DNA from: Fidelibacterota bacterium
GTDB taxonomy: Bacteria > Fidelibacterota > Marinisomatia > SCGC-AAA003-L08 > JACNLC01
Assembly: GCA_013204025.1 (NCBI GenBank)
Contig: JABMOW010000074.1
Span: 1 to 30,085 of the forward strand
DNA: 30,085 nucleotides
Reading direction: 5' to 3'
In this document: positions 14,669-27,950 of the stretch, one piece after another
Position numbering within the stretch: position 1 is the first letter of the stretch
Layout of the letters: every line of letters begins with the position of its first letter
The notes under the pieces: model-generated
The model's database searches: none
Told to the model about the DNA's origin: nothing
What the model saw: only the letters and a program-made list of their open reading frames with translations
Position numbers and translations under genes: made by a program

Positions 14669-16024
14669 TTATTTTAGCGGAAAGTAAATATTTTCAACTT
14701 TTTGGACTTTCCCTGCATTCAACAAGATTTTAGCTATAAATCCAAGTTTCATTCTGGTTTCTCCAAGGGGTTTTTCCATTTCCGAAATTTTCACACCTTT
14801 GGGATGTTTGTTGATATAATCAAGTATCTTATTTTCCAAAGTTTTCGGACTTGTTGGTTCTGGAGTGTTAACCAGGGGTTTAGGTTTAGCTGGAGTTTCA
14901 TTTGTTGCCATGAGAACTACGGGGTTTGGTTTGGTTTCAACAGGGATTTCCTTTGTTGGCATTGCTGCCACAGGCGGTTTTGGTTTAGCCGGAGTTTCCT
15001 CTGTTGCCATGAGAACTACGGGGTTTGGTTTGGTTTCAACAGGAGTTTCCTGAGTTTCCATTGCAGCCACAGGCACTTTTGGTTTGGTTTCTGCCGGAGT
15101 TTCCTTTTTTGCCTGATCCTTTACTACTTGCTTAGGCGATATAATAATGCCCATTTTTCTTATTTGAGATATAGAGTCTTGCATATTTTTCCATGTTGCA
15201 GTAGCCTCTCCTCTGTCTTTTGATAGATAACCAAGCATTCCATTAGTATATTTCTGAATTCCATTTACTTCATTACGAATTCCTTTAATAGCCCCATGTA
15301 TCCCGGTCATGATTGACCTGTATCCGCTAAGTCTTTCTGCTTCTCCAGTATCAAGGTCTTTTCTCAACTTTTGAGCCATTTGTTGGTTTTCTGTACTTAT
15401 TTCAGACAATTTTTTTTGAAACCCATTCAACAGGGTTTTGGTATATTCAACTCTTTCAGTCAGATTTTTACTTAATTCTGCTCTAAGCTCATCCGTCATT
15501 TCCATATGCTCATTCTCAAATCTTTTGAGCATATCGTTGGTGTTTTTGAAAATACTCAAAACCTCGTCGTTGATACTTTTAATATCATCGTTGATATTTT
15601 TCATGAGCGTACCAAATTCCTTCATCCGATTTTTTTCATTCCCCAATCTGTCAGCTTTTCCTTGTGCAAAAGATTTATTTAATTCGTCTGCCATTTGTTC
15701 TCTATTGGCAGCGAATTCATTGATCATATTTAAGGTGCAAGTTTGAATTGTCTTTACATCTTTCTGAATGGATGTGATCGTGCTATGGATATTCGTCATT
15801 AATTCATTGTAGGTGTTCAGGCGTTCTTTTTCATCACCTGCTAGGCCTTTTTTTAAGGCCATAGCATTGGCATTTATAACACTGGTCATTTTCTGGTGAT
15901 CTTTTCGAAAACCATCGAGGGTTTTCTGTACATCGCTTACAAGATCTTCATTTTCCTTGATTCGCTGTTTAAATGAAGCAAGTATGTCTTCACTCAAATT
16001 TTTCATTTCTGATGCTAATCCCAT
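14669..16024 (-). CDS. Repeat-rich helical protein, candidate GvpC-like gas-vesicle shell/scaffold protein, with a C-terminal winged-helix-like domain
   Basis: It contains ~60-aa degenerate helical repeats built around (D/G)x(K/A)(E/D)RL(N/S)xY(N/R)x(L/I)MT(N/G)IH(S/G)xI(T/K)xI(Q/R)x(D/E)V(K/N)xIQ, written with slashes for alternatives. Two and a half tandem 33-aa Pro/Lys-rich repeats follow (ETKPNPVVLMATEETPAKPKPPVAAM..). The C-terminal ~60 aa (..KILDYINKHPKGVKISEMEKPLGETRMKLGFIAKILLNAGKV) look like a winged helix. Confidence 0.7.
   Translation of the reverse strand: MGLASEMKNLSEDILASFKQRIKENEDLVSDVQKTLDGFRKDHQKMTSVINANAMALKKGLAGDEKERLNTYNELMTNIHSTITSIQKDVKTIQTCTLNMINEFAANREQMADELNKSFAQGKADRLGNEKNRMKEFGTLMKNINDDIKSINDEVLSIFKNTNDMLKRFENEHMEMTDELRAELSKNLTERVEYTKTLLNGFQKKLSEISTENQQMAQKLRKDLDTGEAERLSGYRSIMTGIHGAIKGIRNEVNGIQKYTNGMLGYLSKDRGEATATWKNMQDSISQIRKMGIIISPKQVVKDQAKKETPAETKPKVPVAAMETQETPVETKPNPVVLMATEETPAKPKPPVAAMPTKEIPVETKPNPVVLMATNETPAKPKPLVNTPEPTSPKTLENKILDYINKHPKGVKISEMEKPLGETRMKLGFIAKILLNAGKVQKVENIYFPLK
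14874..15094. repeat. 99-bp tandem repeat (x2.3) inside the CDS, encoding 33-aa Pro/Lys-rich units
   Basis: Units at 14874-14972 and 14973-15071 are nearly identical. A partial third unit follows. Confidence 0.8.
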
Positions 16025-17283: not shown

Positions 17284-18681
17284 TTACTTTTCGCTTTTAC
17301 AAATGGTGATGTCGTACTTTTTCATTTTTCGGATGAGGGCATCGCGAGTTATTCCAAGTTCATCAGCTGTTGCTTTTTGATTATATTTGCAGTTCTTTAA
17401 TACTTTTCGAATTGTTTTAATCTCTTGAATTCTCAGATTGGTTGAATCAACACGATCCTCTGATGAGGAGATATTATGCGGTTTTACCGGAAAGTCATTT
17501 ACCCGGAGTACGTTGCTTTTGCAAAGGATAATGGCTCTCTCAGTCATATTTTTCAATTCCCTGACATTTCCAGGAAAATCATATTTTACTAGTGCAGTAA
17601 TAGCTTCATTATCAAGCCGCATGCTAGGTTTATTAAATTGTGTTGCATAGAAATCAACAAAATGGATCAACAGGGGTTTGATGTCTTCAGGCCTATCCCT
17701 AAGTGCCGGGATATGTATATGTAGGGTATTGAGTCGGTGAAGCAAATCAAGCCTGAATTCTTTTTTCTCTACACTTTTTTGAATATCATGGTTTGTGGCA
17801 GAAATGATTCGGAAATCAGTCTTAATCGGTTTTGTTTCTCCCACCCTAGTGATCACTTTTTCTTCGGTGGCACGAAGAATTTTCGCCTGCAGATTAAAAG
17901 GCATGTCGGCAATTTCATCAAGGAACAAGGTTCCCTGATTACACACTTCAAAAAAGCCCATCTTATCGGAAATGGCACCGGTAAATGATCCTTTTTTATG
18001 GCCAAAAAATTCGCTTTCCAGAAGTGATTCAGTAATGGCACTGCTGTTAACGGCACAAAATATATTGTCTTTTTTTAAGCTTGAAAAATGTATAATTCTG
18101 GCAATATTCTCTTTTCCGGTCCCACTTTCTCCTGTGATCAGCACATTTGCATCTGGGTAATTTGCGGCAGTGATAGCTTGTTCGAATACCTCAAGAATCT
18201 GTGGGCTGACACCAATAAATTGCCGGTCGATTTTTTCTTCGAGGGTTTTTGAAATTAATGAGTTTTTTTCTTCCATCTGCTTCAATCTTCTTTGCATCTG
18301 AAGAAATTTTTGAGTACGCTTAATTGCAATCTGAATGTCGATATGCCTGAAAGGTTTACGCAAATAATCGAATGCTCCAAGCCTCATGGCTTTGATCACT
18401 GTATCCATATCGCCGTGAGCCGAAACGATGATAACCTCCATGGCAGGGAATTGAATTTTTACATCTTTTAAAATATCCAGGCCATTTATACCCGGCAACC
18501 GCACATCAAGGATGAGAAGGTCAATGTTATGACTTTTTAATAATTTTTGCGCCTCCTGCTCAGTATTTGCCTCAAATGCCACAAAGCCCGAATTCTGAAA
18601 TAATTCATGCAATTCTTCAGTAAATTGTTTTTCATCGTCCAGGATCAGGATCTCAAGTTTGTGTTGATTTTCCATACTCAT
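17284..18681 (-). CDS. Sigma-54-dependent response regulator (NtrC family: REC, AAA+ sigma-54 activator, Fis-type HTH)
   Basis: The REC domain has the Asp in LILDVRLPGINGLD. The Walker A reads GESGTGKE. A GSFTGA variant of the GAFTGA loop is present. The C-terminal HTH reads ..ATADELGITRDALIRKMKKY. It overlaps the kinase gene by 4 nt. Confidence 0.9.
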   Translation of the reverse strand: MSMENQHKLEILILDDEKQFTEELHELFQNSGFVAFEANTEQEAQKLLKSHNIDLLILDVRLPGINGLDILKDVKIQFPAMEVIIVSAHGDMDTVIKAMRLGAFDYLRKPFRHIDIQIAIKRTQKFLQMQRRLKQMEEKNSLISKTLEEKIDRQFIGVSPQILEVFEQAITAANYPDANVLITGESGTGKENIARIIHFSSLKKDNIFCAVNSSAITESLLESEFFGHKKGSFTGAISDKMGFFEVCNQGTLFLDEIADMPFNLQAKILRATEEKVITRVGETKPIKTDFRIISATNHDIQKSVEKKEFRLDLLHRLNTLHIHIPALRDRPEDIKPLLIHFVDFYATQFNKPSMRLDNEAITALVKYDFPGNVRELKNMTERAIILCKSNVLRVNDFPVKPHNISSSEDRVDSTNLRIQEIKTIRKVLKNCKYNQKATADELGITRDALIRKMKKYDITICKSEK

Positions 18682-21600
18682 TCTTTATTTTGTAAATTTA
18701 TAATTATATGAAAAGTTGAGCCATCAAATATATTGCTCGATACTTCTATTGTGCCATTCATCTCTTGTATTATCCGATATGAAATTGACAATCCAAGTCC
18801 AGTACCTTTCCCGGTATCCTTGGTTGTATAAAAAGGAAGCATAATATGTTCACTATCCTCTTCGCTGATGCCGGTACCATTATCGCTAATTTCAATAATA
18901 AGATCTTGGTCCTCCAGAAATGATCTAATCCCGACGAACATATCAAATTCCTCTGATAATTTGCCTTTCTTTTCAAGCAGCGCATCTTTGGCATTTGATA
19001 ACAGATTAAGGATAACCTGTTCAAATTTTATATTATTACCAATAATTAAAGGAATACTTTCTTCCAATTGTAGATTTAGACTGATGGCCAAATGTTTAAA
19101 TTGTTCCGATATCATCATGATAGTATTTTGGATACTTACATTAATATCAAAGGCTGTTAGAAGGTAATCATCGCGGCTTCTTGAAAATGCCTTGACGTGA
19201 TCTATGATGTTTCTTATCCGTGTAATATTTTCAAAAATTTTATTCGATTTTTTCTTTAGGTATTCTTTTTCGATTATTTCCTCTTTGGTAGCCTCGTATA
19301 AGACATTATCCATAACCATTGATATGATATTTAATGGCTGGTTAATTTCATGTGCAATGCCAGAGGCCATTTCTCCCAGACTGGCCATACGATCAGAGTG
19401 AATCTGCTTTATTTCCATTTTCTTGCGTTGGGAAATATCGCGGATAATAACCATGAATGCAATTGACTTTCCATCCGGGTCCTGAATTAAAGTAGAGTTG
19501 ATTTCACCTATAAGTGTCGATCGGTCTTGTTTTCTGAATTGTATTTCAATATTTTGTTCAAGCCCTTCATCCATTGTCTTTTCAATAAGCTTTTTTAACT
19601 TATTTCTTCCAGCAGATGGAACAAATTTGGAAAAATGTTTGCCCAGTAAGTCACTTCTGAAGTCGGCGCCAATTAATTCAAGCCCGATATCAGAAACCTC
19701 GATAATGATTCCTTTCATGTTGAATATTAAAATACCATCGGGAGAAGCATTTAGCATCGTTTTGTATTTCTCTTCGCTTACTTTTAGTGCGTGTTCTGCT
19801 ATTTTGCGTTCTGTGATGTCGCGTATAAATGCATAGTATCGTCCGCCCTCGGTCAGCACGAAATTAACACTGATCTCAATATTTATAGTTCTGCCGTCTT
19901 TACAACGATGTTGGGTCTCAAAGCGATCATAACCAAAATCTCTCACCAACTGTATGTGTGGTTCGATCTCTTCCGAGTTTTCCTGAATATCAACATCTTT
20001 GAAGCTCATTTTTAACAATTCTTCCCGGCTGTAGCCGATTAAATTGCAATAGGCATTGTTCACATCCAGAAAGCGTCCTTGAGAGTCCGACATAATGAAA
20101 CCATCCATCGCCGCTTTAATAATCGATCCATGCTCTTCCTCGGAATGCATGCGCTTGGTGATGTCTTCGAAAGTAGAGTATACTTGATATGCTTTCTTTT
20201 TTCCCGGGTTGAACAGAGGGATAGAATTAATATTTATCCAACGAGTTTCTTCAATTTTAGGATTAAATACTCCCATAATTGCATTGCTTACCGGTTTCCC
20301 TGTTTTTAAAGCCACCATGGCAGGGTGTGTATCTCCGGGAAAATCCGTGCCGTCCTCGTGGATGGATTTCCATCGTGGATCAGTAGAGGTGCGTCCTTGC
20401 ATCTGATCTAACGAAAGTCCCAGGATGTGCTCTGCCGAGGGATTTGCTGAAATTATCTTTCCCTTTTTATCTTGATGCACTACACCCTGGATCATGGTTT
20501 CAAACAAATTGCGAAATTTTATTTCGCTGTCCCTTCTTTCATTCTCAAATTGAATTCGTTGAGTGATATCTGATGAAATGCCTAACAAATATTCCGATTT
20601 CCCATATTTATCAAGGATAGGGATTTTTTGTGTCTGTAAAATTCTTATGCCTTTATTCTTGGTATGAATCGATTCTTCAGGCATATACGTCAGACCAGAT
20701 CCCTTTAATGTTTTCTTATCCTTTGAAGTAAAGAAATCAGCTTCTTTCTTAGTAAAAAAGTCATAATCATTTTTACCAAATAGTTCATCTCTCGAATAAC
20801 CAAGCAGTTCTTCGCCAGCTTTATTAAGGCGTACAAAGGTCAAATCTTTGGCATCTTTAAGGAAGATCATATCAGGAATATTTTCTATAATGGAGTCTAG
20901 AAGTAGATTAGTTCTTTTTAACTCATCCTCCATCTGCTTGCGCTGTGTGATGTCGTGAACAATACCATCAAAATATAAAATGGTCCCGGTATCGTCGTAT
21001 ACCACTTTCGCACTTTCGCTTACAAAAAGTTTCGTTCCGTCTTGCTTTATCCAGGCAGATTCAAATTCAAGTATTTGTCCATCTCTTTCAATTTTTCCCA
21101 TAAAAACTGAATGCTGATAATTGGGATCAAATCCTTCCTCTTCCAAATTACGATGTGCAAGTTCTTCAAACGAGGAAAAGCCCAGCATTTTTACCAAGGT
21201 TGGATTCGCCATCAGGATTCTACCATCTTGAGTAGTTCGATATAATCCGATTAAAGTATTTTCATAAACACTACGGAATCGTTTGTCACTGTCTTTTTGT
21301 TCCTTCTCCACTTGCTTGCGTTGGGTTATGTCAAGGTTAATGCCCACCCATTTCATTATTTTACCAGTATCATCCTTAATCGGTCTTCCGATAGCTAGAA
21401 CATTTCGATAGCTGCCGTCTTTTGCTCTGAATTGGTGTTCCTTCTCATAGTCTGCCCCAGTTTCGACACAACTGATCCAGTGATCTTTTGTCGGTTCAAC
21501 ATCCTCAGGTGGTAATAAACTCAGCCAGCCAAATTTTTGTATTTGTTCCATTGTCATACCGGTCATTTCAAGGAACGAAGAACTGCAATACGTACAATAG

Positions 21601-22874
21601 CCGGTGGCATCTGTAGTCCAGGCCCCATAGTCGATTGTCTCACCGAGAGTTCGATACTGCAATTCGCTCTGGATAAGTTCCTTCTCCGCTTGCTTGCGTT
21701 CGGTGATATTTTCCTGTATCACCACAACGTTTGTCACCTTGCCTTCAGGAGAAAATATTGGGAAAAATTTTATTTTAACAAAAATTTTATTATTGTTATA
21801 TGGTGAAATGTATTCTTGCTCGAGTACATCTATCTCATTCCCATTTAATGCTTCCCTAATATGTTTATCAACACCGTATTCAATATTTTGTGGTACAGTA
21901 AGCGCGTTTGTTCCAAGAATTAAATCTTTATCGGGAACAGCATAAAATTTCAGAAACGCTTCATTAACAACCAATAGAATGCCATTGTCATCCAACACAA
22001 AAGTGGAAAGCGGTGACTGCTGTATGAGACGTTCAAGGAACTCGCTTTTTCTTTTTACTTCCTCCTCCGCCTGCTTGCGATCGGTGATGTCTTTTGTAAA
22101 GCCAAGAAATCGTGTTTCCGAAAGTTTAATGGCTTCTACAGTCCACCATCGAGTGGTCCCGTTTTTATATTTGAACCGCATATCTGCTGTTGCTGCGCCG
22201 GTTTCACGTATTTTTTTGAATTGAACCGAGTCATCTTTTGACGATTCTTCCGTACTCATATCCGAGATTGACATTTTTAAAAGTTCATTTTTCGAATACC
22301 CGGTTATTCTGCATGCTGCTTCGTTCACTTCGATATATTTCCCGAGTTCATTTACAACAAAAACGCCATCAGGAGCATTATCAACGTAACTCCGATATTT
22401 TTCTTCACTCCTTACAAGGGCTTTGTTAATTCTGGTCAATTCGTCGGCAGATTTTTTCAGTGCCAACGCGTCCTTGACAATGATCTGTTTCTGTTCGAAT
22501 AGATTAAGAAATACTTCGATTTTACTTAGTAGAATATGATAGTTGACTGGTTTGAAGATATAATCGACTGCCCCGGAATTATACCCTTCAATCACACCAA
22601 TATCGTTGGGACCGGCTGCCGTAAGAAAAATGATTGGTACTTTATTATCGGATCTTTTTTCATTCATCTTTATCGCCAGTTCATAACCACTCATACTGGG
22701 CATCCGAACGTCGATGATTGCCAATGAAAGTTCAATTCCCTTAATTTTCTTCAGGGCTTCATACCCAGAACGCGCCGATATCAGATTAGCTTTTGTTTTC
22801 TTAAGGACTACTTCAAGAAAGGTCAGATTGGCTTCGGTGTCATCTACAATAAGTATGTTTGGTAGATAATCCAT
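18678..22874 (-). CDS. Hybrid sensor histidine kinase: N-terminal REC, multiple PAS/PAC domains, HisKA and HATPase_c (1398 aa)
   Basis: The N-terminal REC reads ILIVDDTEAN..AIIDVRMP. There are at least six PAS-like modules, each ending in ..DIT(Q/E)RK(Q/K)AE... The H-box reads GIAHEINQPLN, the N-box LNLLSNAKDAL, and the G-boxes ISDNGTGIS and GTGLGLSIS. Confidence 0.9.
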   Translation of the reverse strand: MDYLPNILIVDDTEANLTFLEVVLKKTKANLISARSGYEALKKIKGIELSLAIIDVRMPSMSGYELAIKMNEKRSDNKVPIIFLTAAGPNDIGVIEGYNSGAVDYIFKPVNYHILLSKIEVFLNLFEQKQIIVKDALALKKSADELTRINKALVRSEEKYRSYVDNAPDGVFVVNELGKYIEVNEAACRITGYSKNELLKMSISDMSTEESSKDDSVQFKKIRETGAATADMRFKYKNGTTRWWTVEAIKLSETRFLGFTKDITDRKQAEEEVKRKSEFLERLIQQSPLSTFVLDDNGILLVVNEAFLKFYAVPDKDLILGTNALTVPQNIEYGVDKHIREALNGNEIDVLEQEYISPYNNNKIFVKIKFFPIFSPEGKVTNVVVIQENITERKQAEKELIQSELQYRTLGETIDYGAWTTDATGYCTYCSSSFLEMTGMTMEQIQKFGWLSLLPPEDVEPTKDHWISCVETGADYEKEHQFRAKDGSYRNVLAIGRPIKDDTGKIMKWVGINLDITQRKQVEKEQKDSDKRFRSVYENTLIGLYRTTQDGRILMANPTLVKMLGFSSFEELAHRNLEEEGFDPNYQHSVFMGKIERDGQILEFESAWIKQDGTKLFVSESAKVVYDDTGTILYFDGIVHDITQRKQMEDELKRTNLLLDSIIENIPDMIFLKDAKDLTFVRLNKAGEELLGYSRDELFGKNDYDFFTKKEADFFTSKDKKTLKGSGLTYMPEESIHTKNKGIRILQTQKIPILDKYGKSEYLLGISSDITQRIQFENERRDSEIKFRNLFETMIQGVVHQDKKGKIISANPSAEHILGLSLDQMQGRTSTDPRWKSIHEDGTDFPGDTHPAMVALKTGKPVSNAIMGVFNPKIEETRWININSIPLFNPGKKKAYQVYSTFEDITKRMHSEEEHGSIIKAAMDGFIMSDSQGRFLDVNNAYCNLIGYSREELLKMSFKDVDIQENSEEIEPHIQLVRDFGYDRFETQHRCKDGRTINIEISVNFVLTEGGRYYAFIRDITERKIAEHALKVSEEKYKTMLNASPDGILIFNMKGIIIEVSDIGLELIGADFRSDLLGKHFSKFVPSAGRNKLKKLIEKTMDEGLEQNIEIQFRKQDRSTLIGEINSTLIQDPDGKSIAFMVIIRDISQRKKMEIKQIHSDRMASLGEMASGIAHEINQPLNIISMVMDNVLYEATKEEIIEKEYLKKKSNKIFENITRIRNIIDHVKAFSRSRDDYLLTAFDINVSIQNTIMMISEQFKHLAISLNLQLEESIPLIIGNNIKFEQVILNLLSNAKDALLEKKGKLSEEFDMFVGIRSFLEDQDLIIEISDNGTGISEEDSEHIMLPFYTTKDTGKGTGLGLSISYRIIQEMNGTIEVSSNIFDGSTFHIIINLQNKE

Positions 22875-23011: not shown

Positions 23012-23185
23012 AATTCAATTTACAGATATCTCTAATAGTCCGTACATGGTCTTTTGTAATGGGTTATTTTTGAATTTTTTGATGTAGTCCGCTGCTCCTA
23101 ACACTTTTCTAATTTGTCTTTCCATCAATAGTGCATCAGCAGGGTAATCTTCGAGAATTAAAATATGTATTATTTTTTCCATTGA
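23012..23185 (-). pseudogene. Orphan N-terminal fragment of a receiver (REC) domain (~57 aa)
   Basis: Translation of an unlisted short ORF gives MEKIIHILILEDYPADALLMERQIRKVLG.., which is the beta1-alpha1 region of a REC domain. It lacks the rest of the domain. It lies immediately downstream of repeat copy 1. Confidence 0.4.
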
Positions 23186-23221
23186 CCTTTATAATTAAAA
23201 TCTGTCATTAGACTCTCACAA

Positions 23222-23565
23222 GGTATCTTTGAAAATATGAGTTGAATTTTGAATCACTGACTCCAGAAATAACTCTGAAAAGTGTGTAATTTCAATATCC
23301 ACTCCAAGTAAAAAATACATAGACAGGTGGTTGCCAACAAACTCATATTGAAGGTCATTTTCATGTGGCTTTAACAAATTTCTGATATTTGTCCAATAAA
23401 AAATGATAGCAGGAGTTGGATACTCTTTCGTATAACTCCTGTATTTACAACGCTTTCAACGATAATAATATACTAGAGTATGTACTTTGAATAATTTCTT
23501 GTGTACTTTTACGTAATTGTTTTTCGATGTTCCGTCGAGCGAGAAGTGTACTTATAAAAACTGGG
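23222..23565. repeat. ~345-bp diverged direct repeat, copy 1 (~80% identity to 27607-27950); part of it encodes a degenerate HATPase_c N-box/G1-region fragment on the minus strand
   Basis: Direct by-eye alignment. The minus-strand translation ..NLLKPHENDLQYEFVGNHLSMYFLLGVDIEITHFSELFLESVIQNSTHIFKDTL* is conserved with copy 2 at the protein level. Confidence 0.7.
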
Positions 23566-23728
23566 GGTTGGGGTTTGTGTTAAAAAGTACGTTTAATATG
23601 TTGGGAATACATGCTTCTCGTTCCACAAAGATTTGGCCGTCCACAACATCTCCACAATAGAAAGCCACTGTGAATCCAAAATTTTGAAGTCGATTTTCAA
23701 TCTGAATATGCAAAATTCAGATGCGAAA

Positions 23729-26700
23729 TTATATGGGAATCCGTACAAAAAATGAATTGCCTTGAGAATTATTGGGCTCGACACCTACATCAGCGTGGTG
23801 GGCATCGGCTATTTTTTTCACGATTGCCAGACCAAGGCCCCCGCCTCCCTTTGACAATCCCTCAAGCTGAATTTTTCTTTTAAATACTTTATCCCTGAAT
23901 TTCTCTTCAATCGTTTGTCCAAGATCGTTCACCCGAATAGTGATGTGAGTACTAGATTTTTCTGCGATCAAAGTAATTGATTTCGCACTGCCACCATATT
24001 TAATGGCATTGCTGATGTAATTATCGAAAATTTCAGATATAATAGGATTAGCCCGGATTTCGATCTTTTCCTGAATCTGATTGTCTACAATAATTTGTTT
24101 TTATTGTAAAGTTCTTTTAAACCGTGAAAGGACCTCATGCACCATCAAGGATACATCAAGGTTTGTCAGCTCTATTTGATCCCCCACTTCGATTTTAGCC
24201 AGATTTGTGACATTGGTAATGATATGAAGGGATTGATCAATAGAGTCTTTCATGTATAACAATTCTTCGATATCAGAATGTGCATGCACAATCATTTCAG
24301 CAAAACCTTGAGCAGTTCCGATAGGATTTCTTAAATCATGGGTGATGATATCCAATAATAAATTCTTTAAATCATTTGATTTTTTCAACTCGTTTGTTCG
24401 CTGTAATACGATTTGTTCAAGTCGCTGATTCCGTCGCCGGATGTTGGTTAGTCTTCGACTAATTATATAAAAGAGAGAACTAAATACAAGTAGCAATCCG
24501 AAGACTCGAAATAATGCTGTCTGCCAGAATGGGGGCTTTATAAATATATTTATTCTGGCACCGGTATCATTCCATATACCGTCGTTATTAGAACCTGTTA
24601 CTTGAAATGTATAAGCACCGGGGTGAAGATTCATATATTTTGCAACGCGGCTGTTGCCTGCATTGACCCAATCTTTATCATACCCGACCAGGATATATCT
24701 ATATTTATTTTTTTCGGGAATTGAAAAATTCAGTGCAGAATAATGAATAGAAAATGCATTTTGTTGATATGTTAAATCAATCTTATCCAAATTTGTTATT
24801 ACATGGGGCAGAGGGGAATCAGAGCCTGGTTTCACACGCTCGTTGAAGATATAAAAATCTGTTAAAACGATTTTTGGTACAAATGGATTGATGTTGATTT
24901 CAGACGGTCTGAATGCATTGAATCCGTTGATACCACCAAAGTACATGACTCCTGATTTTGTTTTATATGCTGCACCCTGATTGAATTCATTACTTTGAAG
25001 TCCATCCCGATAATCAAAATTATGAAAGCTCAATTTATCAGGATCAAATTTTGACAAACCTGAATTAGTACTTAGCCATAGATTGTCTTCTGCGTCAGCC
25101 AGGATACCATAGACAACATTACTAGCCAGCCCATCATTAGTGGTAAAATATTTTTTCTTTTTTGATTCCAAATCATATTGAACGAGACCGTAACCGTGGG
25201 TACCGATCCATAATTTCCCCCGTGCGTCATTGTGAATCGTATATATATCTATCTGATTATCAAGTGGTAGATACCTGATAAAATGCTCAGATTCATAATC
25301 AAAACGGTTTATTTCGCCACCACTTGTACCAATCCAGAGTTCCCCGGAATTATCGCAATATATTGTACTAATATAATCACCACTTATACTATTTGTGTCG
25401 CTTGGGGAATATGTATAGTTATAGAAAGTATCCTTTATTGGATCGTATTTACTTAATCCCCCTCCATAGGATCCGAACCACATCGTTCCTGCCGAGTCGC
25501 GACAAATGGAAAAAACTCCGTCCAGCCCGAATGTTGATGAATCAGTCTCAACCATTTTGAAATGCCTGAACTCATCCAACTGGGGGTTATACAAGTCGAC
25601 ACCTTCGCCGAATCCTATCCATAAATTGCCGTTCAAGTCTTCACCAATAGCACCAATGCTGTTACTGGCAATACTGTTATTGTTATCAGGAATGTTCATC
25701 ATGTATGTAAAACTGTTGTTAGCTGGATCATATTTATTAACACCACCACCATCAGTCCCAATCAGGATTGCCCCGGAATTATCTTCAAAAATGTCATAGA
25801 TTGAATTATTATTCAACTGGTTTGAACCATTTGGAAAATAGAAGTGGTGGGGAAATTTGCGTTTTCCCGGATCATATTTATTCAATCCGCCAGAGCCGGT
25901 ACCGACCCAGATTACTCCAGCATTATCCTGATATATCGCGGGGATATAATTATCATTTATGGTGTTTGGATGTTCAGGATCATTTACCAAACGGGTAATT
26001 GTTCCGTTTCCAATATCAAGTCTATTTAGTCCATTATAGCTTCCAAACCACAAATTATTTGCGTTGTCCTCAAATATCGAAATTATTCCATTACCTGCCG
26101 TACTTTCAGTGTGTGGCAGGTCTTGCTGGTAAATTATCCTGTCGCCCGTTTTCGTATCCAGTTTTACCAGCCCTGAATTAGTGCCCAGCCAAAGAATCCC
26201 GCTGTCATCTACCATAAAAGTGTTTATTTCCGTATCAATCGAATCAATATTATTATTGATATTCAAATTATAATTAGTGAATTGACCTAATTCAGGATCA
26301 AAGCGACTCAGTCCATCATAAGTACAGATCCAGAGAAAACCATCAGCGCTTTCCGCTATTTTGAAAATATAATAAATCCAGCTGTCTATTGAATCACGGT
26401 TCGATCGTGCATAATGTTCAAATTGGTTTGTGTTGTGAATAAATTTATTAAGTCCTTCAGATGAACCAATCCAGATTGTGCCATCAGCACTCTCAATAAT
26501 TGAATAAATATAATTGTCGCTCAAACTAGTTGAATCACCGGGGGTATACCGAAAGTTTGTGAAACGTTCAAGGCCAGGATCATAAACAGCAATACCAGCA
26601 CCTTCAGTGCCAATCCACAATCTACCCTGACTGTCTTCGAAAATCGTGTTCACATAATTGGCCGAGATAGTGGTTGAATCTGCAGGATCGTGACGGAATA

Positions 26701-26908
26701 TTTTAATATTGTATCCGTCATACCGATTCAATCCGTCTTGGGTACCAATCCATAGGAAGCCATTGCTGTCCTGAATGATACAATTTACGGTGCTTTGGGA
26801 CAACCCATCCTTGATGGTAATGTGTTCAAATTCTGCCGATAGACCATTGTCAGCCGATAAAACCGACAGAATGATAAGGCTGCTGGTTAAGTATTTAATC
26901 TTTGTCAT
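23729..26908 (-). pseudogene. Beta-propeller (two-component-regulator propeller / Y_Y_Y) sensor histidine kinase, interrupted by an in-frame TAA (24101-24103) between HisKA and HATPase_c
   Basis: The 935-aa ORF has a signal peptide, WxGT-type propeller repeats, a TM segment (FGLLLVFSSLFYIISRRL) and an H-box (ITHDLRNPIGTA). After the TAA the same frame continues as KQIIVDNQIQEKIEIRANPIISEIFDNYISNAIKYGGSAKSITLIAEKSSTHITIRVNDLGQ..GGGGLGLAIVKKIADAHHADVGVEP... These are the N, G1 and G2 boxes. 24101 and 23729 are congruent mod 3. Confidence 0.75.
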
Positions 26909-27011
26909 AAATTGATAATTCCGGAAGTTTCTGACAGTGATTCCGGTAATCTTTCGGACACTTATTTTAGCTTCCTAAAACTTCATTGTCAAGTTGCCTG
27001 ATTACTCCGCT

Positions 27012-27807
27012 TTACCTTTTCCCCATTACTGCTTTGATCTTTTCTATCAAGTCTTTGGATACATAGGGTTTTTGGATAAAACCAGCCAGTCCTTTTCCTA
27101 CGAACTGCTGGGTAGCATCTTGCTCATTGTAGCCACTTGTGAGAATCACTTTTATATCGGGTTTTAGCTTGCGAATCTCGCGGAAAACCTGTATTCCATC
27201 CTTATGGGGCATGGTAAGATCTAATAGTACACCTACAATTTTATCTGCATGTTCTTTGAATATTTCAACTGCCTCATGACCATCATCTGCGGTTAACACA
27301 TCAAAGCTGAGTTTTTTAAGACATGTGTTGGCCAACGGTCAGGACGGCTTCCTCATCATCGGTAATCAAAAAGGTACCCTGTCCCTGCCACTCATTATCT
27401 TTCTAAAGAGAATTATCTGTGAGTGATTTGCTGCCATCAATATCTTCATACAGTGGGAATAATACTTTGAAAGTCGTTCCCTTGCCTTCTTCAGAATAGA
27501 TCTTGACCATCCCGTGATGCCCTCTTACAATGCCTAATACAGTAGATAAATCTAACCCTCTCTCTGTGAATTTAGTTGTGAAGAAGGGTTCAAAGATTTT
27601 TGCCATGGTATCTTTGGAAAAATGAATTGGATTTTGAATCGCTGATTCCAGAAATAACTCTGAATAGTGTGTAATTTCATTATTCACTCCAAATAAAAAA
27701 TACGTAGACAGAAGGTTGCCAACAAACTCATATCGAAGGTCATTTTCATGTGGTTTTAACAAATTTCCGTTATTTGTCAAATATAAATGGTAGCAAGATT
27801 TGGGCAC
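27012..27807 (-). pseudogene. Decayed C-terminal remnant of a hybrid histidine kinase (degenerate and partial HATPase_c plus REC), with an in-frame TAG and a frameshift
   Basis: 27403-27807 encodes a degenerate N-box/G1 region (VGNLLSTYFLFG...LFLESAIQNPIH) and then a genuine G2 region (KIFEPFFTTKFTERGLDLS..GKGTTFKVLFPL). A TAG at 27403-27405 is followed in frame by KDNEWQGQGTFLITDDEEAVLTV, which is the start of a REC domain. The rest of the REC (LKKLSFDVLTADDGHEAVEIF..DLTMPHKDG..) is in another frame, 27012-27335. Confidence 0.7.
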
Positions 27808-27950
27808 ACTTTCGTATAACTCATTTATTTACAACACCTTCTATAATTATCGTAAATTAGTGTATATACTTTGAATAATTTCTGGCATACCTATACGTCA
27901 CTTTTTTTCGATTTTCAGTCGAGAGAGCAGTGTCGTAAATATAAATGTAT
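27607..27950. repeat. ~345-bp diverged direct repeat, copy 2 (partner of 23222-23565)
   Basis: See copy 1. The shared left boundary is GGTATCTTTG. Homology runs about 150 bp beyond the coding part into AT-rich non-coding sequence. Confidence 0.7.

Follow-up and report, generated by a model that had tools for sequence, protein, structure and literature searches.

Does a diverged direct repeat in a regulatory neighborhood of a Fidelibacterota bacterium encode the worn-down ATP lid of a histidine kinase, or is it debris left behind by a rearrangement? The repeat, termed X, occurs twice in the analyzed stretch of DNA (30,085 nt, contig JABMOW010000074.1 of assembly GCA_013204025.1, positions 1 to 30,085 of the forward strand; hereafter the window), and its two copies enclose a propeller kinase gene near a gas-vesicle cluster. 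An earlier note, made from the letters alone, had described the copies as parts of two paralogous, decaying HATPase-REC genes that share a degenerate ATP-lid segment conserved at the protein level. Our analysis favors a plainer answer. X is probably without function. It would make up the 5' end of a hybrid-kinase gene that is truncated and decaying, and would thus be the neutral debris of a local duplication or recombination. As far as sequence comparison can tell, there is no conserved protein in either copy, and no ATP lid of a kinase.

The presence of a two-copy, diverged direct repeat was borne out by blastn, which aligned the copies at 84% identity (E 3e-100) over 331 nt (331/330 in copy 1 and copy 2) with a single 1-nt indel and a start-to-start distance of 4385 bp (Table 1). 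The limits proposed earlier required adjustment: the sequence GGTATCTTTG, taken as the left boundary, does stand at positions 23222 and 27607, but X starts 3 nt further to the left and ends about 16 nt before the right limits that had been given. A sensitive blastn search of the 30 kb found no third copy in the window. Local alignment of the flanking sequences scored at the level of shuffled sequences on either side of X (P 0.81 and 0.43), so the repeat is sharply bounded. Identity is not uniform along its length, the kinase-proximal block (175 nt) being 89.7% identical compared to 78.2% in the upstream block (147 nt; Fisher p 0.005).

The X peptides quoted earlier for the minus strand are correct translations of both copies. 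However, the claim that they are conserved at the protein level was not sustained. In the quoted frame, 19 codons differ between copy 1 and copy 2, only 2 of them synonymously and 17 non-synonymously, and the differences are distributed over codon positions 1, 2, and 3 as 6/10/4. The ratio of non-synonymous to synonymous divergence (dN/dS) is 1.47 by the NG86 method and 2.1 by the LWL85 method, not significantly greater than 1. When the same 20 substitutions were placed randomly in a neutral simulation, a mean of 4.2 synonymous codons was obtained, with P(<=2) = 0.17. The peptides are about 72% identical (44/61 amino acids), which is close to the rough neutral estimate of about 75% at 89% DNA identity. 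Every other frame of X on both strands contains stops, and none does better than the quoted one. An apparent protein conservation between DNA copies that are 89% identical is meaningless before synonymous and non-synonymous changes have been counted.

Searches for relatives of X gave a similar picture. In a word-indexed search of 5.8 billion clustered proteins, the X peptide matched nothing but the gene call of its own contig. Exhaustive searching of 1.84 billion representatives with HMMER returned that protein together with three highly repetitive ones (P0122-P0124), which were rejected as relatives; each reached an inflated score by summing 5-24 short tandem-repeat matches. At the DNA or pattern level, X was found neither among metagenome contigs (peptide patterns), a scanned collection that evidently does not include the source contig itself, nor among viral contigs (peptide patterns and a 27-mer), nor among plasmids and phages (BLAST), nor at 80 loci carrying relatives of the propeller kinase. 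A 20-mer search of the GTDB representative genomes yielded only one 22-nt match, in Kovacikia, attributable to chance. The best relatives of the propeller kinase are at most 39% identical to it, and a synteny comparison with the relatives of the kinase remnant described below was uninformative, as P0004 lies at a contig end and P0002 in a different context. The checks that the earlier note had itself proposed, namely dN/dS and a search for homologs, thus returned a neutral-like ratio and no homologs, the combination that it had equated with neutral debris.

The alignment of the X peptide to the region of a histidine kinase from the N-box through the G1 box was assessed in three ways. A profile of the N-box-to-G1 region, built from the 40 closest of those homologs that cover this half of the domain, scored below 1 bit everywhere when compared to all frames of both X copies and their upstream flanks. 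In an anchored test using the whole-domain profile, the real 134-aa copy-2 open reading frame (ORF) scored 102.0 bits, compared to 102.8 bits for its C-terminal part alone (from residue 61); with residues 1-62 shuffled the score was 101.8 ± 1.3 bits, and 280/1000 shuffles equaled the real ORF. hhalign gave the X peptide a probability of only 0.2-0.4%; it placed FVGNLLSTYFLFGV..EITHYSE on the G2 region instead (FTGRGLGLSAVLGIV..IKVYSE, probability 0.2%), a weak alignment that was taken as chance. The peptide had no match in Pfam at E<=10. An N-box with its Mg-binding Asn was not detectable by profile in the X peptide, the Pfam HATPase_c match beginning only at profile position 47, and in place of the G1 motif DxGxG the copies read SAIQNPIHF and SVIQNSTHIF. 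Two database proteins, P0017 and P0045, served as a positive control: their gene calls begin near the G1 box, and the N-box and DHp domain were found immediately upstream in another frame, so the method detects a frameshifted N-terminal half where it is present. With the free profile, the anchored shuffle test, and hhalign all negative, the earlier alignment has to be given up, and the likeness of NLLST to an N-box and of ESAIQN to a G1 box is, on these comparisons, one of chance resemblance. Such chance matches to N-box and G1 consensus sequences can occur in AT-rich open frames, which calls for caution in reading them.

The other half of the earlier description of copy 2 was confirmed. Its frame does run into the true C-terminal half of a HATPase_c domain (Pfam E 7.7e-09, residues 61-120 on profile positions 47-110). 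In tblastn searches of homologs against the copy-2 flank, matches start at 27615-27621; the first residues with kinase homology are thus FSKDT, where the G1 box ends, 4-6 codons inside copy 2. Everything N-terminal of this point is absent from the remnant, with unrelated sequence in its place. The remnant keeps 44/48 near-invariant columns, and two of the four departures are glycines of the G2 box (TERGLDL), replaced by Glu and Asp in columns where 99-100% of homologs have Gly. This half domain, in which the F box and G3 are present and G2 (GxGxGL) is degenerate, by its sequence appears to descend from the HATPase_c family without being a functional member of it.

Behind the half domain, the in-frame TAG and the frameshifted REC domain noticed previously were both found. 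The TAG lies in the linker between HATPase_c and REC, where the closest homolog, P0004, has Asn, and the frame changes within the first receiver helix (Table 1). The REC domain is therefore not whole in one frame, its first strand and acidic pocket (LITDDEE) lying in a different frame from the rest. The REC part is 72-77% identical to P0002 and P0003 by tblastn, and the whole remnant, from the F box through G2, G3, and the linker to REC, shares 68% of its residues with P0002 and with P0003 and 80% with the partial protein P0004. Similarity to the window's own kinases is only of the generic REC and HATPase kind (24-35%). Read in reverse complement, positions 124-30208 of a public contig of 30,208 bp (JGI metagenome contig 3300032524, Ga0335111_1435317) correspond to the window; 21,408 bases were compared, and all lesions of the remnant are also present in that contig. 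Downstream of copy 2 there is a real pseudogene, derived from a CckA-like hybrid kinase. The suggestion that a hybrid-kinase C-terminal module has been eroded thus holds for copy 2 only, where a 5'-truncated HATPase-REC gene has a TAG, a frameshift, and two lost G2 glycines. The public gene calls at 27403-27762 (HATPase_c) and 27012-27299 (Response_reg) should accordingly be annotated as pieces of one dead hybrid kinase. With regard to the TAG, the stops of 21 long ORFs in the window are TAA in 17 cases, TGA in 4, and TAG in none, a sample too small for inference, and the only in-frame TAG noticed in the window is that of the kinase remnant. Since the frameshift breaks the remnant anyway, a reassignment of TAG would not rescue the gene.

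Rearranged or broken kinases of this type were also seen elsewhere. Many database proteins begin at a Met in the G1 box, among them several of about 200 amino acids with HATPase_c and REC, annotated as 'response regulator' or 'CheY-like'. They were considered as a separate family of half-HATPase and REC proteins, a possibility that found no support, the two that were checked (P0017 and P0045) being frameshifted full-length kinases. At two loci (L085:3651-4600 and L086:3649-4603) the remainder of the kinase stands just upstream in another frame; these are frameshifted or mis-assembled full-length hybrid kinases. On the contig of P0002, the closest long homolog (L003:86-3825), HATPase-REC is inverted relative to adjacent dCache-HAMP and PAS genes. 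The latter resemble the missing front half of P0002, and an inversion that split a hybrid kinase is a possible explanation; IS91/Y2-transposase fragments lie close to these kinase parts. In P0069, on a 139-kb contig, a PAS fragment is fused to the lid region just before G1, with DHp and the N-box skipped, so that this protein too is a kinase of the family with an internal deletion.

For copy 1, the results were different. No HATPase homology was detectable in it, and the 55-codon ORF on its 3' side, previously read as an orphan REC N-terminus, gave no match to Pfam at E<=10, none to PDB, and matched only itself among the 5.8 billion proteins. Against a REC profile it scored 0.9 bits, a score reached by 88/1000 shuffles. 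Its sequence ILILEDYPAD alone recalls the first strand of REC domains, an identity that the searches did not confirm. Copy 1 is thus without demonstrable kinase or receiver homology, the picture of two paralogous HATPase-REC remnants shrinks to the one behind copy 2, and annotation of the 55-aa call as a receiver domain is unsupported.

A sequence of events that would account for these features begins with an older rearrangement, which may have joined X to the middle of the ATP-binding domain of a CckA-like kinase, just after G1. The same rearrangement would have removed the sensor, DHp, N-box, and G1, and X would have consisted of an AT-rich flank and about 60 open codons. The remnant would then have gained the TAG, the +1 frameshift, and the glycine losses in the G2 box, lesions that are themselves directly visible. 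Later, a 331-bp piece spanning X and about five kinase-derived codons (KDT-L/M) would have been duplicated 4.4 kb downstream, and the copies would since have drifted neutrally to 84% identity. That KDT-(L/M), which matches the kinase consensus K-x-T-(L/I), is common to both copies suggests that the junction predates the duplication. The duplication could have taken either of two routes: a tandem duplication of a 4385-bp unit, most of whose second copy was then deleted, or a Campbell-type insertion, in which a single crossover at X would bring in the kinase cassette and leave direct repeats around the inserted block.

Several points weigh against this history. The upstream block of X has diverged more than the kinase-proximal block, which pure neutral drift after a single duplication does not predict; the uneven identity may come from gene conversion or from a non-coding constraint. 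The same frame is open for 79 codons from stop to stop in copy 1 (upstream stop 23456) and for 75 in copy 2, a length with a P of about 0.06-0.08 in first-order Markov-simulated sequence of matched composition. This is only marginally unusual and may reflect former coding or a weak constraint. Located 5' of the 1-nt indel, the open frames of the two copies are not even homologous in frame. Both the direction and the mechanism of the duplication are our inference. Further copies could exist in other contigs of the source organism or in close relatives, which lie outside the collections searched. Finally, the copies each stand 5' of one of two consecutive transcription units on the minus strand, where a regulatory module would be expected.

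The last point leads to the alternative that survives best, although we consider it unlikely: X could be a duplicated cis-regulatory module, a promoter plus leader, serving two consecutive minus-strand signaling units. The first unit would be the kinase remnant and the propeller kinase, and the second would be the 55-codon ORF, the PAS kinase, and the sigma-54 activator upstream of the gas-vesicle genes, with the better-kept 3' ~180 nt of X held by constraint on DNA or RNA and not by coding. Somewhat less likely again is the specific form in which X, as a promoter and leader under non-coding constraint, would bring the gas-vesicle regulatory operon (PAS kinase and sigma-54 activator) under joint control with the unit of the propeller kinase. 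Besides the position of the copies, the heterogeneous conservation of X, which coding does not explain, fits such a module, and a sigma-70-like sequence, TTCAAA-18-TATTAT/GATAAT, recurs at equivalent positions of the two copies (23491->23462 and 27875->27846, minus strand). However, these sites match at only 9/12 positions, a level at which 23 ± 5.5 sites are expected by chance in the AT-rich region, and the organism may use promoters of another type. A far better sigma-70-type match, TTGACA-17-TAAAAT (11/12, 26992->26964, minus strand), stands directly upstream of the propeller kinase and suggests that this gene has a promoter of its own. Moreover, the unit right behind copy 2 is a pseudogene. 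No Rfam family was found in X, the only match being to U3 (E 0.56), and no stable or shared fold was detected, with folding z-scores of -0.2 to -1.3 for both strands of both copies; copy 2 does not preserve the 8-bp hairpin of copy 1 (23410-23441).

It is more improbable still that X is a fragment or end of some uncharacterized mobile or recombination element, inserted once into a kinase gene and once into a nearby spacer. The sharp boundaries of X and the different flanks of its copies would agree with this, as would the rearranged kinase locus of the same family beside IS91-like fragments (the L003 inversion). On the other hand, no terminal inverted repeats were found at X, no target-site duplication was seen in a by-eye reading of the flanks, and no transposase- or integrase-like gene was among the domains found beside either copy. 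X therefore does not qualify as a transposable element or miniature inverted-repeat transposable element, with two copies in 30 kb and nothing in the other collections searched. The last ~5 kinase-like codons, common to both copies, also fit a copied junction better than two independent insertions.

We give very little credence to the idea that the X frames are small, fast-evolving paralogous proteins. The frame open in both copies and a dN/dS above 1 could be read in this way, and an alternative frame, MKMTF(N/D)MSLLAT..., has a conserved ATG. However, copy 2 truncates the latter frame to 21 codons, the quoted frame has no conserved ATG and only TTG and GTG as available starts, its dN/dS is not significantly above 1, it has no homologs, and in copy 2 it is fused to a pseudogene. 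The least credible proposal is the earlier, avowedly speculative one that the coding part of X is the N-box-to-G1 segment of an ancestral, ATP-binding-deficient pseudo-kinase family, for which NLLST resembles NLLSNA, LFLE and SKDT flank the G1 position as in P0003 (LFLEISDTGTGMSKET), and the open frame leads without a break into the F box, but which is contradicted by a dN/dS of 1.5-2.1, by the lack of any profile score free or anchored, by hhalign probabilities below 0.5%, by the lack of homologs in exhaustive searches, of DHp, and of orthologs, and by the fact that known pseudo-histidine kinases keep the whole folded catalytic domain. Non-functional debris of a local duplication or recombination, at the 5' end of a decaying hybrid-kinase gene, remains the reading that we prefer for X.

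Table 1. Positions of repeat X, the kinase remnant, and neighboring genes in the window.
Feature	Position	Strand	Remarks
Repeat copy 1 (X1)	23219..23549		Spacer between propeller kinase and 55-codon ORF/PAS kinase; frame ends at TGA 23216-23218
Repeat copy 2 (X2)	27604..27933		On the minus strand, 5' flank and first ~60 codons of the frame entering the kinase remnant
HATPase_c C-terminal half, pseudogene	27406..27621	-	End of G1, F box IFEPFFTTK, G2 TERGLDL, G3 GKGTTF; first 4-6 codons (FSKDT) inside X
In-frame TAG	27403..27405	-	HATPase-REC linker; Asn in closest homolog P0004
+1 frameshift	27320..27335	-	First receiver helix (TVGQHM / LKKLSFDV); A6 run adjoining; tblastn frame -2 to -3
REC domain, split over two frames	27012..27402	-	Pfam Response_reg E 2.3e-19 for 27012-27335, profile 15-111
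55-codon ORF 3' of copy 1	23015..23182	-	REC identity not demonstrable
Propeller (Reg_prop/Y_Y_Y)-HisKA-HATPase kinase	23729..26908	-	Between the X copies
REC-PAS hybrid kinase	18678-22874	-	Precedes gas-vesicle cluster
Sigma-54 activator	17284-18681	-	Precedes gas-vesicle cluster

On the minus strand, the gas-vesicle cluster is preceded by the REC-PAS kinase, the sigma-54 activator, the propeller kinase, and the two-component remnants. The earlier note had counted three disrupted two-component genes here, a number that reduces to one certain pseudogene. The stop in the propeller kinase depends on a single base of the window: the sole difference from the public contig over the bases compared is at 24103 (A in the window, C in the contig), where positions 24101-24103 on the minus strand read TAA in the window and GAA in the contig. 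The public gene is intact and encodes 1059 aa, and public assemblies have no record of a truncated product of 935 aa. The propeller kinase beside the gas-vesicle regulators should thus be treated as intact in annotation.

Two further repeats were observed in this neighborhood. Within the gas-vesicle cluster, a minus-strand ORF (14669-16024, 451 aa) contains a 99-nt tandem repeat at 14873-15085 (2.2 copies, 87% matches), which corresponds to 33 aa. Its period of 33 residues recalls GvpC; in Pfam the protein gave weak coiled-coil-type matches only and no match to Gas_vesicle_C. Inside the 1398-aa PAS kinase, direct repeats of 31-43 nt recur every ~378-384 nt at 20123-22091 and probably represent the conserved DIT(E/Q)RKQ linker after successive PAS modules.

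Among known systems, the copy-2 remnant is closest to the CckA-like hybrid kinases (HisKA-HATPase_c-REC proteins in which a long lid insert separates the N-box from G1), being 68-80% identical to P0002-P0004. It differs from them in the loss of everything before the end of G1, in the TAG and the frameshift, and in the two missing G2 glycines, and it is best described, from these comparisons, as a descendant of that family and not as a working member. Bacterial pseudo-histidine kinases such as DivL, the ChrS pseudokinase variant, and PsmA reportedly keep their DHp and catalytic domains whole, occur conserved in different species, and have functions that were demonstrated, whereas the copy-2 ORF has no DHp, no N-terminal catalytic half, no orthologs, and no sign of purifying selection. 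Its likeness to DivL (PMC4211667), the ChrS variant (PMC9491836), and PsmA (PMC12963549) is limited to the idea of a kinase-like sequence without catalytic motifs. X itself is most like dispersed segmental duplications and the scars of unequal or Campbell-type recombination, with which it shares the direct orientation of the copies, a 4-kb block between them, sharp ends, no transposon features, and neutral divergence. It departs from these in that the event cannot be reconstructed and in its uneven conservation, which a single neutral duplication does not predict. X matters little beyond the annotation of two-component calls on this contig, and it is an ordinary dispersed duplication.

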